Shown here: one piece after another, positions 11,402 through 30,164 of the stretch
Numbering within the stretch: the first letter of the stretch is position 1
Layout of the letters: each line of letters opens with the position of its first letter
Virus genome (UHGV): UHGV-0019118
Strand: one strand, 5' to 3'
Source of the DNA: a virus
Length of the DNA: 31,495 bases
Translations under genes and position numbers: made by a program
Notes under the pieces: generated by a model
What the model was told of the DNA's origin: nothing
The model's input: only the letters and a program-made list of their open reading frames with translations
Database searches by the model: none

Positions 11402-12265
11402 ATGGAAGAATCTAAAAGAATACGCCAATTAAAAGAAAACCTCATAAAGGAACTACCTTTCTTTCCAAATGAAAAATCAATACGCACTGAACTAGAAAAT
11501 CAAAGTTTAAATGGGGTTTTAATCGCTTACCTCCACTGGAAAACAAGAATTGTGCCGACCCGCAGAAGGAGAGTTCATATATATCCAGAGGTAACGAGCG
11601 ATAAAAGATGGAAAGAACTAAAACTTGGTATTCATGGGTTACTGGATAAGGTCAGAAAAGGTGAAGACTTATACCCTCATCTTTCATTGCGCGCACATAA
11701 GTATGGCTACACTCCTGTTGAAAGAATTCGTAATGGAGATGCTGATTCATGGGAAGACAAAGATCAGTTATTAAATACGAAAGGTTTTCATCATTTTCAT
11801 TTGAGCATGAATATTCAAAGTACAGGCTTGGCCGAAAGGACAAATAATGTTCTTTTTGCCTTCGTTTCTCGCGACCAGTTTCATGCTGTGGGGATATTTG
11901 ATCATAGTGTATTTGATAAACCCGATAGTTTAAATGGCATGACTGAGGAACGTGAAAGAATGTGGACCCTGCATGAAAAATACATCACATTCGGAATGAA
12001 AGCTGGCACAGTGTATATAAACAATCTGATAACAGCATCCGGGCATCCTGTAAATCTTATCATGCTCGCCGATCGTTATGCTGCAATCATCCGAGAATAT
12101 GACCAGAAGGCGGAAGACAGAATTTTTGTAAATGAGCTTTATGCTCAAAGCCCACTTCCCTCTCCAGAAAGGTTTAAATTTGAGTGGCGCATAGAGGGTT
12201 TGGATCTTGTTCTTTTTGATAAAAAAAACAGAGTGGCCTTTAACGTCTACAAAGCTCACATTTAA
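11402..12265 (+). CDS. Hypothetical protein, AT-rich cargo gene (moron) between V and S
   Basis: 287-aa ORF on the strand opposite to all flanking late genes; visibly AT-rich; AGGA 7 nt upstream of ATG; TATAAT at about 11383-11388; strong hairpin directly downstream. Confidence 0.6.
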   Translation: MEESKRIRQLKENLIKELPFFPNEKSIRTELENQSLNGVLIAYLHWKTRIVPTRRRRVHIYPEVTSDKRWKELKLGIHGLLDKVRKGEDLYPHLSLRAHKYGYTPVERIRNGDADSWEDKDQLLNTKGFHHFHLSMNIQSTGLAERTNNVLFAFVSRDQFHAVGIFDHSVFDKPDSLNGMTEERERMWTLHEKYITFGMKAGTVYINNLITASGHPVNLIMLADRYAAIIREYDQKAEDRIFVNELYAQSPLPSPERFKFEWRIEGLDLVLFDKKNRVAFNVYKAHI

Positions 12266-21839: not shown

Positions 21840-23075
21840 TTAGGCTTTGCTATTTATCATTCTGATATAACTAGGCATGCGAGGATCTGAAATTTTATAT
21901 ACCCCTCTGGCAGCCTTTGTAAGGATCGCTCCTTTATCAGCCCTAGTAAAACGCCCAATATAGTTACTCATGTGATAGTTACTCAATAAAACCCCCGTAT
22001 CTTCTCGAATTTGGGCAATCCATTCTTGAATGGTAAATTTATTATCTTTGAATTTTGCTGCTGCATAAAGTATTGATGGATAAATATCAGTTCTGGATGA
22101 AGTAACTGCGTTCTCATAGTCTCTTTTAAGTTGTCCCTCGGTGTTTATTACAGCTCGCTTCAAAGCTTCAGGAAGAATGTCGGAATTTACTTCGCTTTTA
22201 CCAGATGATAAAGCTATATCTGCAGATTCCTTTCCTATAAGATGTGTAAAATATGGAAAACCATTGCTAATTTCAACTATAGAGTTTTTAACTTCACGAC
22301 TAAATGTTATACCCAAGCCATGCTCGCCAGTCTCAATTATTTCATGTAAATATTTATCTTCAATTCGAGAGAGTTGAATTTCATGGAGGCATCTGTTCAC
22401 AGAAGGATGACCTGCTATCAACGAAGCACCGTCACTGGAAATGCCAACTAACAAAATCTTCAAAGGACTATTGGAATCACTAAGTTGTTTAACAAATTCA
22501 GCGACATCATGCTTAACGTCATCACTGACAACATCAAATTCATCTATTAAAAGTATTGCATTCAATTCTTCAAGCGCAAAACAGGCTTTACTTGGAGTAA
22601 GGTCTTCTTTTTCTATCGTGATTTTCTCTTCGGCAGAAACGTCCGCTCTAAATAATTTCAAAACATTAAGCCCAATACCTGCTTTTTTGGTAGTCTCTCT
22701 TTTATTTGCGGCATATTCACTATCAATAAATATAGCTGGCCTTGCAATTATATCTTTGAATTTTGTTTTTTTATCACATCGCACTACAAAAATGTTACTA
22801 GGTAACACACCTTCATTTTTCCCTCCCTCTAAAGTAGATAAGGCGAGCGAGCTTTTCCCAATCCCTCTCTCTCCATAAATCATGCAATGCTTACCATCAG
22901 TAGTTAAGGTGTCGAGGATATGTTCCACCTCGTTATCACGCCCTTTCAAATGGGTAGGTGCCTCAATAGGTTTAGACGGTGTAAAATATAAATCAACATT
23001 TTTAATTTTATTTTTTTTGGCTTTAAAATTACTGAATATGCTGCTGGTAGTTGTCATTTCCGCATCCCATTGCAA
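21840..23075 (-). CDS. Predicted P-loop NTPase (AAA-type ATPase with uncharacterised C-terminal half); AT-rich cargo gene between Q and cos
   Basis: Walker A GERGIGKSSLA and Walker B ILLIDEFDVV; track start is TTG at 23075, more likely ATG at 23055-23057; candidate promoter TTGCAC-N17-TTTAAT just upstream. Confidence 0.65.
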   Translation of the reverse strand: MQWDAEMTTTSSIFSNFKAKKNKIKNVDLYFTPSKPIEAPTHLKGRDNEVEHILDTLTTDGKHCMIYGERGIGKSSLALSTLEGGKNEGVLPSNIFVVRCDKKTKFKDIIARPAIFIDSEYAANKRETTKKAGIGLNVLKLFRADVSAEEKITIEKEDLTPSKACFALEELNAILLIDEFDVVSDDVKHDVAEFVKQLSDSNSPLKILLVGISSDGASLIAGHPSVNRCLHEIQLSRIEDKYLHEIIETGEHGLGITFSREVKNSIVEISNGFPYFTHLIGKESADIALSSGKSEVNSDILPEALKRAVINTEGQLKRDYENAVTSSRTDIYPSILYAAAKFKDNKFTIQEWIAQIREDTGVLLSNYHMSNYIGRFTRADKGAILTKAARGVYKISDPRMPSYIRMINSKA

Positions 23076-24256: not shown

Positions 24257-24487
24257 TTAACGCCAGCTATCGTCTTCCCAAATCTCTTGTAATATGCTGC
24301 CTAATGTTTCTCTGTCCGCCTCTTTATCGAATCCGATAGCCTCTACACCAGTCATTGACCCTTTCTTAACGTTAACTTTTGTTGCAGGAAAAACGCATTG
24401 TACTCGATGTGTTATTTCATTCTGAAAAGCATCAATGATCTGTTGCCCTAATTTTTGCTCTTTATCCAACGTGATATTGATTCTCAT
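24257..24487 (-). CDS. DinI-family (DNA-damage-inducible protein I-like) protein
   Basis: 76 aa; MRINITLDKEQKL...ITHRVQCVFP...LQEIWEDDSWR follows the DinI pattern (MRIEV...RIQYAFP...LQETWE...W). Confidence 0.7.
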   Translation of the reverse strand: MRINITLDKEQKLGQQIIDAFQNEITHRVQCVFPATKVNVKKGSMTGVEAIGFDKEADRETLGSILQEIWEDDSWR

Positions 24488-24692: not shown

Positions 24693-24712
24693 TACTGTAT
24701 GTTTATACAGTA
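24693..24712. promoter_or_regulatory. LexA (SOS) box
   Basis: TACTGTATGTTTATACAGTA matches the consensus TACTGTATATATATACAGTA at 18/20 positions, with CTGT-N8-ACAG intact; lies about 20 bp upstream of the 60-aa ORF. Confidence 0.7.
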
Positions 24713-27949: not shown

Positions 27950-28459
27950 TCATACCAAACCAAATGTTGCGCCGATGCCCGTCATGGTATCAACCACGCT
28001 CGACATTGCCGGGTTAGCCTGTAGACGCGCCTGTAACGCCAGCGCCGACAGGGACAACATGCGGATGCCTGCATTAACACTCTCAACCATGCTGTGTTTG
28101 CGGTCAGAGGTCATACGTTCATTTGATACCGCACCGCTCGCCAGTTCGCCGAGTTCACTCATTGCGCGCATCACATAGGACTGCAATTTCTCTTTAGCCA
28201 GCTCATTAACCGGCACGCATGGCAGACAATGTATCTGCGCCAGAAAGCCATCAACGAGGGTTGAGTCTTCGGTCAGGTCAGTCAGCAGCCACAATTCAGG
28301 CGGCGTGAACTGGTGAGGCTGTTCCGGGTTGAGCTTGTTACGTAACGTTTGAACGTTCATACCCGCACGCTCTGCCAGCTTCGCCATGTTGTGACGCTGC
28401 GCAAAAGCCCGGCACGCTTCGTCATAGTGAGGATGTTTGGAAATCTGAAAATCAAACAT
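27950..28459 (-). CDS. cII: 186 CII-like transcriptional regulator
   Basis: 169 aa from the ATG at 28457-28459 (MFDFQISKHPHYDEACRAFAQRHNMAKLAERAGMNVQTLRNKLNPEQ..., helix-turn-helix-like); second gene of the rightward early operon as in 186. Confidence 0.55.
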   Translation of the reverse strand: MFDFQISKHPHYDEACRAFAQRHNMAKLAERAGMNVQTLRNKLNPEQPHQFTPPELWLLTDLTEDSTLVDGFLAQIHCLPCVPVNELAKEKLQSYVMRAMSELGELASGAVSNERMTSDRKHSMVESVNAGIRMLSLSALALQARLQANPAMSSVVDTMTGIGATFGLV

Positions 28460-28491
28460 GGTTAAATTCCCTCTAACTTGCATAATCAAAT

Positions 28492-28863
28492 TCAGTTAAG
28501 AGCGGTGCGCTGGTCAATGTAGCGGCAATCAATCGCTTGCTGGGTTAGTTTGTCGCGCCATGCTTTCACGTTTACGAGGGTGCGGCTTCGTTTACCGACG
28601 TCTTCTTTGTTGGAAAAATCTTTGGTCGGAGCTTTGAGAAGAATGCCGTCATCGAGCCATTGCCAGACTAGACGCTCGCTTACACCTCGAGTGGCGGCGA
28701 AGTCTTTCACAGTCATCGTGTCTGACATAGCGGAGCGAATCATTGTCTGGAGAGCTGGCAGCATGGCGGTAACGATGGCATCAAACTGTGTTGGATCTAA
28801 CAGCACAGTTTGATTTTGTGAGTTTTGCGAGTCGTGCGTCGAGATTGATTTTGCATCTGACAT
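28492..28863 (-). CDS. apl: Apl/Cox-like excisionase and transcriptional regulator
   Basis: First gene divergent from cI; HTH-like segment TMTVKDFAATRGVSERLVWQWLDDGIL; the start may be one of several internal ATGs. Confidence 0.55.
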   Translation of the reverse strand: MSDAKSISTHDSQNSQNQTVLLDPTQFDAIVTAMLPALQTMIRSAMSDTMTVKDFAATRGVSERLVWQWLDDGILLKAPTKDFSNKEDVGKRSRTLVNVKAWRDKLTQQAIDCRYIDQRTALN

Positions 28864-28976
28864 ATCGCATTATCTCCTATTGTTTGAAATGTAGTGCAGT
28901 GGTGTGCATCTTGGTCGATGAATGCCACTTTAAATCGAAAATGAGTTTATGTAAATCGATTTTGAGTGATTGATAA
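28864..28976. promoter_or_regulatory. Lysis/lysogeny switch region (divergent promoters and operators)
   Basis: 113-bp AT-rich spacer between divergent apl and cI with repeated motifs taaatcgaaaatgag / taaatcgattttgag and tgcagtggtgtgca. Confidence 0.5.
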
Positions 28977-29816
28977 ATGAATGATGAAGATTTGAATACG
29001 CAAGATGTGATTGAGCGGATTAGTTCGGCGTATGGTGTCAGCACGCAAAAGGCTTTGGCGGAAGTGCTTGGCGTCCCGTCAAACAGCGTCAGCACTTGGG
29101 TTCAGCGAAACAGTTTTCCAGGCAAAGCCATCATTCAGTGCTCATTAGATACTGGCGCCGATTTAAACTGGCTGCTGACTGGTCAAATTTCAAATTTGAA
29201 TTTGCAAGATTCATCGCCATTGAAAGGAAAGTCACTTTATGACGAGATTTTGGCGAGTGGTGGTAAACCTGTTTTAAGACGCATCCTTGATGCGTATGGT
29301 TTTACAATGCAAAAGGAGCTTGGAGATTTGTTGGATATCTCCTCAGGCACTATCAGCACTTGGGTAAGACGAGATTTCTTCCCCGGTGATGTAGTAGTTA
29401 CTTGTGCTCTTGATACCGGTGTTTCACTGGAATGGTTAGCAACCGGTAAAGGGCAAATGCGAACAAACAGGGAAGCTGTCACATCAGGTTTTTCAATTAA
29501 AAAATCCCGCCTTGAATCTGGTGAGCTTAAGGATGCTGGCGCATGGCACACAGACCCCTCGATGATACCCTCTGATTCAGATGAATTGATTTTTGTCGAA
29601 GGTGTGGGCTCCTCTTGGCTTGTCGACTGTTCGGCTTCGAACATAAGCAATGGGCGTTGGTTAATTGATATCGACGGCGCTCTTGATGTTTTTGATGTGA
29701 TTCGTCTTCCTGGAGGAAAAGTCAGGTTGTCTAATAAAACTGCTGAGTTTGAATGCAATATTTCAGATATCAAGCCTGTCGGGTCTGTAGTTCTTACATT
29801 GGAAAAACACGTATAA
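28977..29816 (+). CDS. cI: 186 CI-like immunity repressor with a duplicated N-terminal DNA-binding domain
   Basis: 279 aa; residues about 12-70 and 100-160 are clear copies of each other (…AYGVSTQKALAEVLGVPSNSVSTWVQRNSFPGKAIIQCSLDTGADLNWLLTGQ vs …AYGFTMQKELGDLLDISSGTISTWVRRDFFPGDVVVTCALDTGVSLEWLATGKGQ); divergent from apl and upstream of int. Confidence 0.75.
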   Translation: MNDEDLNTQDVIERISSAYGVSTQKALAEVLGVPSNSVSTWVQRNSFPGKAIIQCSLDTGADLNWLLTGQISNLNLQDSSPLKGKSLYDEILASGGKPVLRRILDAYGFTMQKELGDLLDISSGTISTWVRRDFFPGDVVVTCALDTGVSLEWLATGKGQMRTNREAVTSGFSIKKSRLESGELKDAGAWHTDPSMIPSDSDELIFVEGVGSSWLVDCSASNISNGRWLIDIDGALDVFDVIRLPGGKVRLSNKTAEFECNISDIKPVGSVVLTLEKHV

Positions 29817-29825
29817 GGAGCTGTA

Positions 29826-30164
29826 ATGAAAAAGTATTTATTAATGATGGTCTGTTTCGCACTTTCTTCATCAGCCTTAGCCGCAGAGAAGTTTAAAGAG
29901 ATTGATAGTAAATCTTTTGGTGATAAATGGCCGCTGACCTTTGAGCATGCAAAAGTATCCTGTGTAAATAGTCACTACGTTTTTGTTTATGACATTGATA
30001 CGGATGAACGCTATCCCTTAAGCGGCATGGCTAAGAACGCCGTCAAGTCTGGAAAAATGGAAGGGCGAGATTTAAAAGAAGTGCTAAAAAAAGACCCTAA
30101 CGATCCATTAGAACGAGCTGATATTGCTCCTGTTTTCAGTGAAGCCATAGCGCTTTGTGAATAA
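29826..30164 (+). CDS. Small secreted protein (signal peptide), AT-rich cargo gene between cI and int
   Basis: MKKYLLMMVCFALSSSALA-AEKF: signal peptide with an Ala-x-Ala cleavage site; two Cys in the mature part; AAGGAG 6 nt upstream of the ATG. Confidence 0.6.
   Translation: MKKYLLMMVCFALSSSALAAEKFKEIDSKSFGDKWPLTFEHAKVSCVNSHYVFVYDIDTDERYPLSGMAKNAVKSGKMEGRDLKEVLKKDPNDPLERADIAPVFSEAIALCE

Follow-up and report, generated by a model that had tools for sequence, protein, structure and literature searches.

The virus genome UHGV-0019118, a stretch of 31,495 nucleotides referred to here in its entirety as the window, is a complete PSP3/186-like (Eganvirus-type) P2-family prophage, and its immunity repressor gene, cI, raises the question of what a phage repressor does with a second DNA-binding head. 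The gene is an ATG open reading frame (ORF) at 28977-29816 on the plus strand, and its product is a 186-type CI immunity repressor of 279 amino acids (aa) with two tandem helix-turn-helix (HTH) heads, the N-terminal domains NTD1 and NTD2, ahead of a single oligomerisation domain, the C-terminal domain (CTD). The CI of phage 186 is the textbook alternative to the lambda switch: it forms a 14-mer wheel, wraps DNA and loops to the distal sites FL and FR. Two questions about such a cooperative system are taken up here: by what means a single head recognises sites of two kinds, and from where new immunities come. A widespread natural variant with the recognition tasks on separate heads, each mutable alone, and with a cassette that could be swapped, would bear directly on both. 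The reading favoured here, at a probability of roughly 0.45, is a division of labour in which NTD1 would read immunity-specific operators at the early lytic promoter (pR) and NTD2 would read shared flanking operators. It is built on the architecture of the protein, the unequal conservation of its heads, a mosaic block of DNA, the pairing of operators with NTD1 and the nucleotide-level conservation of a palindrome; the assignment of heads to sites is predicted from these throughout.

Pfam, protein self-alignment, a hidden Markov model (HMM) and a structural model all agree on the architecture. PF07022 (Phage_CI_repr) matches two separate stretches of the 279-aa protein (E 2.8e-54) and PF16452 (Phage_CI_C) matches residues 173-272 (E 2e-22). 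When residues 1-97 are compared with residues 98-279 by BLASTP, residues 11-70 align with 98-157 without gaps, at 48% identity and 70% positives (E 7e-22), and an HMM trained on the two copies together delimits them as residues 8-70 and 96-158; the offset is 87-88 residues, and the core STWV-R-FPG, C-LDTG, WL-TG is found in both. An AlphaFold2 (AF2) model of the monomer, made from a 51-sequence alignment (mean predicted local distance difference test score 79.5), gives NTD1 helices at 8-19, 24-31, 37-44, 49-59 and 63-68 and NTD2 helices at 96-107, 112-119, 123-131, 137-147 and 151-156. The heads are parted by a low-confidence linker, in which the columns L82, K83, G84, K85, L87 and Y88, together with G95 and G96 at the edge of NTD2, are invariant, and a beta-rich CTD follows NTD2. 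The best Foldseek matches of the repressor are the two 186 CI structures, 2fjr and 2fkd, the CTD finding 2fkd in a PDB search (E 3.6e-11) and superposing on 2fkd_A with a template-modelling (TM) score of 0.88 and a root-mean-square deviation of 1.9. The 189-aa chain of 2fjr aligns to residues 97-272 only, which confirms that 186 has a single N-terminal domain; the 186-type CIs of about 190 aa have one DNA-binding domain per monomer, whereas the window repressor has two in 279 aa. The sequence-only reading of this DNA, which had described two copies of a domain of about 60 residues, offset by about 88 residues and sharing a core, ahead of one C-terminal domain, and had given 186 CI as a protein of about 190 aa with one N-terminal domain, is thus borne out. 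That the second copy is merely a linker without an HTH fold is ruled out by its PF07022 match and its five AF2 helices.

The duplication is no oddity of this DNA: the two-head CI is the standard repressor of the PSP3 subgroup of Eganvirus-like prophages, and by alignment the window repressor is a member of this PSP3-type subfamily. Protein searches returned more than 100 clusters of 278-287 aa from Enterobacteriaceae, all labelled 'phage repressor protein CI'. Among phage records, the long CI is carried by Midge (94% identity), RCIP0057, vB_EcoM-613R3, PSP3 (78%, over 97% of the query), SEN1, SI22 and SW9 (66%), and the short CI by 186, the Fels-2 and SopE-phi types and Yersinia phages. A scan of one genome per species yielded 53 two-head loci in Enterobacterales, ranging from Escherichia to Pectobacterium, Dickeya, Rahnella and Buttiauxella; they were retrieved with NTD2 peptides, which inflates the apparent conservation of NTD2 in that set. 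Of the best 150 matches in an index-free HMMER search covering 1.8 billion representatives, 23 have two or three heads. The window allele recurs, >=99% identical, in five complete chromosomes of E. coli, the DNA encoding NTD1 and NTD2 is 53% identical, and the ratio of non-synonymous to synonymous substitution rates (dN/dS) within immunity types is 0.0-0.10 in both HTH copies; judged by this ratio, both heads are under purifying selection and hence functional. Literature searches found no publication describing a two-head CI. The only published remark found, in a comparative study, notes that PSP3 CI is long and puts this down to 'a longer C-terminal domain' (PMC3448106), and a 2024 study of Eganvirus does not discuss a two-head CI. 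What is new is the unremarked architecture and a testable hypothesis for it; the phage subgroup itself has already been sequenced, and its repressor annotated 'CI'.

The extra head is the first one. All relatives of about 190 aa align to query residues 92-278, and the LYDEILASGGK stretch that follows residue ~80 corresponds to the N-terminus, MQLDELEGGK, of single-domain relatives; the single-domain CIs are collinear with NTD2 plus CTD, which makes NTD1 and about 15 linker residues an N-terminal add-on. The nearest single-domain head to NTD1 reaches a maximum of 54% identity, NTD2-type heads being about 49% identical to it, and no single-domain head is clearly closer to NTD1 than these are. 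In-situ duplication is the simplest reading of these alignments, with fusion of a related foreign head as the alternative. Repetition of the CI head is recurrent in the family: in other CI lineages, tandem PF07022 heads stand before one CTD in P0137/L081, P0186 and P0210, and three heads are present in P0242 and P0270. The heads within one protein are 63% identical in P0137/L081 and 68% in P0186, as high as or higher than their identity to the domains of the window repressor, so that these lineages represent separate duplication events. At the L081 locus (1719-2654), both heads have a 186-like ANRY helix with a linker of about 45 residues between them, and the gene 3' of cI is a 661-aa ATPase-like ORF rather than int. 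No locus for P0186 was found in viral contigs.

The two heads differ in their evolution. As judged by mean pairwise identity (NTD1 44%, NTD2 64%, CTD 30%, in a HMMER sample of 10 sequences unbiased by NTD2), conservation within the protein is highest in NTD2, NTD1 being the variable copy, and the same pattern is seen in the NTD2-biased set of 53 loci. The NTD2 helix region, ISSGTISTWVRR, is nearly invariant, whereas the NTD1 helix falls into at least eight types. A separate observation concerns Enterobacter sp. EA-1, in which the NTD2 helix region reads ISVICWISRPGPSAPHW, which hints at a pair of frameshifts close together or at an error in sequencing that genome. In sliding windows, the DNA at 28858-28917 is 83-98% identical to that of PSP3, SW9 and Enterobacter MGH24; the figure falls to 45-68% over 28918-29217 and is again 75-95% from 29278, the diverged block ending near residue 80. 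On this identity profile, NTD1 and the pR operators move together as a mosaic block of about 300 bp. The sequence-only reading had mentioned a changed immunity specificity as a possibility, and this now finds sharper support, since NTD1 and the pR operators form a variable, swappable cassette.

A second expectation of that reading, that two DNA-binding modules per monomer imply a different operator geometry matching repeated half-site-like motifs at 28864-28976, holds in part. The repeated motifs are real, in that the 16-nt direct repeat TAAATCGAWWWTGAGT occurs at 28931-28946 and 28952-28967, 21 bp apart. The switch nevertheless keeps the 186 layout, with two-turn spacing over pR and candidate operators abutting the cI start, and the feature that correlates with the extra head is a set of TTGCA-WW-TGCAA palindromes outside that interval, inside cI and at the junction of the early genes apl and cII. 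The two repeats are the candidate operators O1 and O2 (Table 1). A search of the whole window for the 16-mer with up to three mismatches returned O1 and O2 only, and looser scans gave nothing above chance; NTD1-type copies of the 16-mer at FL-like or FR-like positions were therefore rejected. The possible third site is conserved in relatives as GGTCGATG. The putative lysogenic promoter pL matches the consensus at 8 of 12 positions, under the threshold of the promoter scan, and its sequence is conserved in relatives.

Operator type follows NTD1 type. The NTD1 helix VPSNSVSTWVQR goes with the pR operator pattern ATCGAWWWTGAGT, helix VPANNISSWIQR with ATCGCAAATGCGAT and helix IHANNVSSWLAR with TTTTGTTGTAAACAAAA, and the pairing of helix type with operator type is one-to-one across different apl types and different constant DNA. 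It is kept between loci that differ in this background (L003/L024 and L043; L025/L042 and L029/L040/L046; Kosakonia and L012/L017/L049). Operator identity correlates with that of the NTD1 helix (rho 0.74) better than with that of the NTD2 helix (0.47) or of the constant DNA (0.35); loci with the same NTD1 helix and different constant DNA have an operator identity of 0.69, as against 0.52 for loci with different NTD1 helices and >90% identical constant DNA. Another set of repeats, GTGCA-N5-GTGCA, was considered for NTD2 and rejected, because the same NTD2 helix with another apl type has GTTCTA-N4-GTTACA there and 186 has sites for its early protein Apl in this place. These repeats, which belong to a region (28894-28918) that is invariant in five phages, follow the apl type and the constant region, not NTD2, and are assigned on our own reading to the Apl analogue, as putative Apl/Cox-analogue sites. 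Elsewhere, the first early gene beside a two-head cI is of at least four unrelated-looking types, each with its own 10-bp-phased direct repeats in the interval from pR to the gene start.

The candidate sites for NTD2 are the palindromes, which in their full conserved form, (AAC)TTGCA-WW-TGCAA(GTT), span 12-18 bp. TTGCA-WW-TGCAA, with at most one mismatch, stands directly after NTD1 in 49 of the 53 two-head loci as against 0 of 477 control windows drawn from those genes. GCA is the codon used for 71 of the 78 alanines that it spans (91%), compared with 25% overall. Its register relative to the start of NTD1 is either +190 or +198, with F-A-N-A or S-H-L-Q / N-L-Q as the encoded peptides; a motif kept in two reading frames with different peptides places the constraint on the DNA. 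A further copy, A-A-y-TTGCA-NN-TkCAA-r-TT, is conserved at the apl/cII junction across immunity types (PSP3, AACTTGCAAAATCAAGTT; Kosakonia, TTGCAAAAGCAA or TTGCAAATGCAA), 16 loci having it with at most one mismatch. In 186, FL lies within cI and FR covers the promoter pE at the apl/cII junction, and the two conserved copies stand in these places; the palindrome of 186 FL and FR is itself a different one, TTCAC-N5-GTGAA.

Single-head relatives connect this palindrome with NTD2. In prophages of Rahnella and Ewingella, the CI has a single head, 78% identical to NTD2 and with its type of recognition helix (LSSGTISTWVRR in Rahnella). The 17-bp spacer between the TTGACA and TAGATT hexamers of their pR is occupied exactly by AACTTGCATATGCGAGTT or CTTGCATTTGCAAG, and in Rahnella also by TTGCATTTGCAA. 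Perfect palindromes are present in 25 of the 44 loci with an SSGT NTD2 helix and in none of the nine with variant NTD2 helices (our own tally, made without phylogenetic correction), and all nine of the latter carry variant palindromes. The idea that the linker palindrome is a 'fossil promoter', an ancestral pR operator caught by a tandem duplication that extended from the operator to the end of the NTD, was considered and set aside as unsupported speculation. The spacing is alike, at 66-77 nt from the linker palindrome to NTD2 and 77 nt from the Rahnella operator to the NTD there; the intervening DNA, however, has no similarity above shuffles, and at L081, an independent duplication, neither an operator copy in the linker nor homology between upstream and linker DNA was found.

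Induction bears on the conserved part of the repressor. The window, Midge, PSP3, SEN1 and SW9 have three NTD1 types among them, yet their TumA, the presumed antirepressor, is >=98% identical. If TumA acts like 186 Tum, which inhibits DNA binding by CI, its invariance alongside differing NTD1s implies a target in a conserved part of CI, probably NTD2/CTD. TumA has no match in PDB and BLAST gives no alignment with 186 Tum; a short motif, AL-LIA-A, is common to the two by eye only.

On the division of labour proposed here, NTD1 would bind the two-turn-spaced pR operators and shut off the lytic operon, and NTD2 would bind the TTGCA-type sites that the whole family has where 186 has FL and FR. The CTD would assemble a 186-like multimer bridging these sites. 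Occupation of the flanking sites by NTD2 would provide long-range cooperativity and control of pL and pE, for which 186 uses one dual-site HTH. TumA, under LexA control, would act on the conserved part of CI, and exchange of a small cassette would create a new immunity with looping and induction undisturbed. A more tentative proposal, somewhat less probable, is that the two heads represent a subfunctionalised form of the dual-specificity head of 186, NTD1 having become freely exchangeable and dedicated to pR, and NTD2 being kept as the interface with TumA and for universal flanking operators, common to all PSP3-like phages and in one case embedded in the coding sequence of cI.

Several points weigh against this division of labour. 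Every site assignment in the two-head subfamily is one of predicted binding, and the unbiased conservation sample comprises 10 sequences only. The DNA encoding NTD1 adjoins the pR operators, and their co-variation could reflect linkage alone. The AF2 model gives no reliable inter-domain geometry, the predicted TM score of 0.40 leaving the relative placement of the domains unpredicted. The FL-like and FR-like copies in the window are imperfect, with one and two mismatches, and the 12-mer at up to two mismatches is not enriched across the window (9 found, 8 expected). Three single-head loci (L054, L070 and L071) have the Rahnella helix and yet carry the palindrome AACCTy-N8-rAGGTT in the pR spacer, so that identity of the helix is no guarantee of identity of the operator. 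Finally, O1 and O2 of the window are asymmetric (ATCGA...TGAGT), which a simple symmetric dimer of NTD1 does not explain. As a separate observation, L054, L070 and L071 are Franconibacter and Citrobacter loci in which the pR-spacer palindrome is 20 bp long and which also have GTGCATTGGCGTGCAT repeats like those of the constant region of the window.

The asymmetry of O1 and O2 leads to the alternative that survives best, unlikely as it is: a single-chain pseudo-dimer, in which NTD2 and NTD1 of one monomer would read the two halves of each 14-16-bp pR site, the flanking palindromes being secondary or bound by something else. O1 and O2 are non-palindromic direct repeats (ATCGA-WWW-TGAGT) with the same asymmetry in both, and (A/G)ATCG recurs next to the pR -10 hexamer in most immunity types, the rest of the site varying. 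The pR-spacer site is nevertheless a good palindrome elsewhere, in Kosakonia (ATCGCAAATGCGAT), Dickeya (ACACGTAACGTGT) and Buttiauxella (TAAACAACAATTGTTTA), as would suit a symmetric dimer of one type of domain; moreover, the conserved ATCG is unlike the operator of the NTD2-like single-domain CIs, and the nucleotide conservation of the TTGCA palindrome away from pR would be left unexplained.

It is more doubtful again that NTD2 has ceased to read DNA and serves as a docking surface for TumA or as a structural spacer, NTD1 doing all of the operator binding, that at the flanking sites included. The near-identity of TumA where NTD1s differ, which calls for a conserved target, would fit such a role, as would the conservation of NTD2 (64%, against 30% for the CTD), which is unusual for the DNA-reading head of a phage repressor. 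However, NTD2 has essentially the recognition helix with which single-domain CIs must bind DNA; palindromes like those at the pR of these single-domain phages are kept under synonymous-site constraint in two-head phages, and NTD2 helix variants coincide with variant palindromes. Distinctly improbable is the converse, that DNA binding at every site falls to NTD2 as a general head, with NTD1 as an accessory, for instance for specificity tuning, exclusion of related phages or partner sensing. NTD2 plus CTD alone amounts to a complete 186-type repressor, but the pR operators differ radically despite near-identical NTD2 helices and track the NTD1 helix, and the full HTH fold of NTD1 is kept under strong purifying selection. 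An assembly artefact, or a recent, degenerating and functionless duplication, can be dismissed, as nothing was found in its favour and it is contradicted by the divergence of the copies (53% DNA identity), by the presence of the architecture in isolated phages (Midge, PSP3, SEN1 and SW9), across many genera in 53 species-representative genomes and, as the same allele, in five complete E. coli chromosomes at >=99%, and by a dN/dS of <=0.10 in both copies.

Table 1. Features of the cI switch and of the associated induction genes in the window
Feature	Position	Strand	Description
cI immunity repressor, coding sequence	28977-29816	+	NTD1-linker-NTD2-CTD; Pfam 2x PF07022 + PF16452; 94% identical to Midge CI, 78% to PSP3 CI
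NTD1 (residues 8-70)	28998-29186	+	Five-helix HTH; variable copy; recognition helix region VPSNSVSTWVQR
Inter-domain linker (residues 71-95)	29187-29261	+	Residues 72-80 predicted disordered, low confidence; conserved helix 85-94 (LKGK-LYDE-GGK)
NTD2 (residues 96-158)	29262-29450	+	Five-helix HTH; conserved copy; recognition helix region ISSGTISTWVRR; collinear with the sole NTD of ~190-aa CIs
C-terminal beta domain (residues 173-276)	29493-29804	+	Homologous to the 186 CI oligomerisation domain
Variable immunity cassette	28918-29217		~300 bp: pR operators, cI start, NTD1 and first part of linker
pR-like early lytic promoter	28927-28955	-	-35 TTTACA (28950-28955), -10 TAAAGT (28927-28932); promoter scan; hexamers conserved in relatives
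Operator O1, candidate	28952-28967		TAAATCGATTTTGAGT; overlaps and lies upstream of pR -35; conserved in Midge, L005 and L008 (same NTD1 helix)
Operator O2, candidate	28931-28946		TAAATCGAAAATGAGT; within the 17-bp pR spacer, 21 bp from O1; position of the central 186 pR operator
Possible weak third site	28914-28926		GTCGATGAATGCC; 20-21 bp from O2, over pR start; left half alone matches O1/O2; our own reading
Putative pL (lysogenic, convergent with pR)	28845-28873	+	-35 TTGATT (28845-28850), -10 CATTAT (28868-28873); by analogy with 186 pL
Three direct repeats GTGCA, GTGCA, GTCGA	28894-28918		10 bp apart, between pR and start of apl analogue
FL-like intragenic palindrome	29196-29207		TTGAATTTGCAA; 1 mismatch to TTGCA-WW-TGCAA; 18-mer context 29193-29210
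FR-like palindrome	28478-28489		TTGCATAATCAA; 2 mismatches; 18-mer 28475-28492; between apl-analogue stop and cII start
Apl/Cox analogue, 123 aa	28492-28863	-	First early lytic gene; PHROG 3554 E 6e-74; weak Cox-like phrog_575 E 8e-5; Cox in Midge
cII (186-type CP76)	27950-28459	-	Likely ATG start 28459; PF06892 E 9e-48; 169-aa CII homologue in Midge
tumA-like gene, 60 aa	24491-24673	-	Presumed SOS-induced antirepressor; PSP3 homologue is TumA, 'UV induction of prophage'
LexA box	24695-24710		CTGTATGTTTATACAG; perfect; just upstream of tumA; sole zero-mismatch match in the window
dinI-like gene (tumB)	24257-24487	-	PF06183 E 1.7e-17; PSP3 annotation

In the wider locus, cI is followed by a gene encoding a DUF2511 protein and then by int, and the opposing early operon runs from the Apl/Cox analogue through cII to the replication gene A, past which come tumA, with its LexA box, and the dinI-like gene. 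The convergent order of cI-int and apl-cII is the same in Midge, PSP3 and 186. The DUF2511 gene (29826-30164, plus strand), of a periplasmic type, is only 45-73% identical at the DNA level to its relatives, as against 75-98% for its flanks (the C-terminal region of cI and int), and looks like an exchanged accessory allele in the lysogenic operon. Two further genes may be cargo. The variable region between tum/dinI and the late genes contains, at 21840-23075 on the minus strand, a gene for a 411-aa P-loop NTPase matching nSTAND1 in Pfam (E 1.5e-8) and PDC-S59 in PADLOC (E 9e-8), a candidate for an anti-phage defence gene. A 287-aa ORF at 11402-12265 (plus strand), lying on the opposite strand to the surrounding tail genes, has no Pfam match and a weak PADLOC match to PD-T4-7 (E 2e-9), and is possibly a second defence gene.

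If the reading of the two heads as a subfunctionalised 186 head is correct, heteroimmune phages of the PSP3 group would share their looping sites and their induction signal, and would have in the cassette a 300-bp route to new immunities. Cross-talk between co-resident prophages would be predicted, in the form of shared induction and of mixed multimers bridging flanking sites, and near-invariant TumA predicts that the SOS signal of one phage could induce its heteroimmune relatives. This would be relevant to Klebsiella, Enterobacter, Salmonella and E. coli, in which two-head prophages are common and have identical TumA and apparently identical flanking sites, with differing immunity. If the division of labour is wrong, the gene simply encodes a repressor whose annotation is correct and whose extra domain had gone unremarked.

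The closest well-characterized system is that of 186, whose CI (192 aa; PDB 2fjr, 2fkd) belongs to the same N- and C-terminal Pfam families as the window repressor. The location of cI is common to both phages, with int after it and apl-cII converging on it, and the pR operators, which in the window are candidates, abut the cI start and are two turns apart, as has been described for 186 (PMC3675496). In the annotated 186 record, three CI sites fall within the 57 bp beside the cI start, the interval from pR to pL contains seven Apl sites, and pL immediately precedes apl; against this three-operator layout, the window has two clear 16-bp repeats 21 bp apart and a half-matching third site. For the distal FL and FR, about 300 bp to either side in 186, the window has candidate palindromes at 29196-29207 and 28478-28489, in analogous positions. 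The main difference lies in the heads. 186 has one HTH per monomer, which binds two distinct recognition sequences, as stated in two papers citing Shearwin 2002 (PMC1904263, PMC3675496), whereas the window repressor has two paralogous HTHs with different evolutionary behaviour. The LexA site that 186 carries at p95, ahead of tum, has its counterpart in the perfect LexA box before tumA in the window, and a Tum-type antirepressor, presumed in the window, takes the place of RecA-dependent self-cleavage. What is one gene, tum, in 186 is split in the window between tumA and a dinI-like gene, and the window's analogue of Apl is a different, longer protein than 186 Apl. Homology of the CTDs makes a 186-like 14-mer wheel plausible for the window CI.

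Closer still are the CIs of PSP3 (286 aa), SEN1, SW9, SI22, Midge, RCIP0057 and vB_EcoM-613R3, which have the two-NTD architecture and are 66-94% identical to the window CI; the PSP3 group also has in common with the window its constant switch DNA, TumA and the DUF2511 gene between cI and int. Within this group, the window, Midge and E. coli EC6622-type prophages combine the NTD1 helix VPSNSVSTWVQR with TAAATCGAWWWTGAGT operators, whereas PSP3 and SEN1, and SW9, have NTD1 helices and operators differing from these. The single-head CIs of Rahnella and Ewingella (L052-L069) provide the counterpart for NTD2: their operator, AACTTGCAWWTGCrAGTT, matches the flanking palindromes of two-head phages, but it stands in the pR spacer, the position of the primary operator, rather than in flanking positions. 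At a greater distance, lambda CI and the LexA-type repressors also have an HTH head and a beta-rich CTD, and Foldseek finds the CTD of the window repressor distantly similar in fold to the C-domains of LexA, UmuD and lambda CI. Unlike these, the window CI has no Pfam match to Peptidase_S24 at E <= 1, and induction by an antirepressor rather than by self-cleavage, together with 186-like oligomerisation, is to be expected of it.

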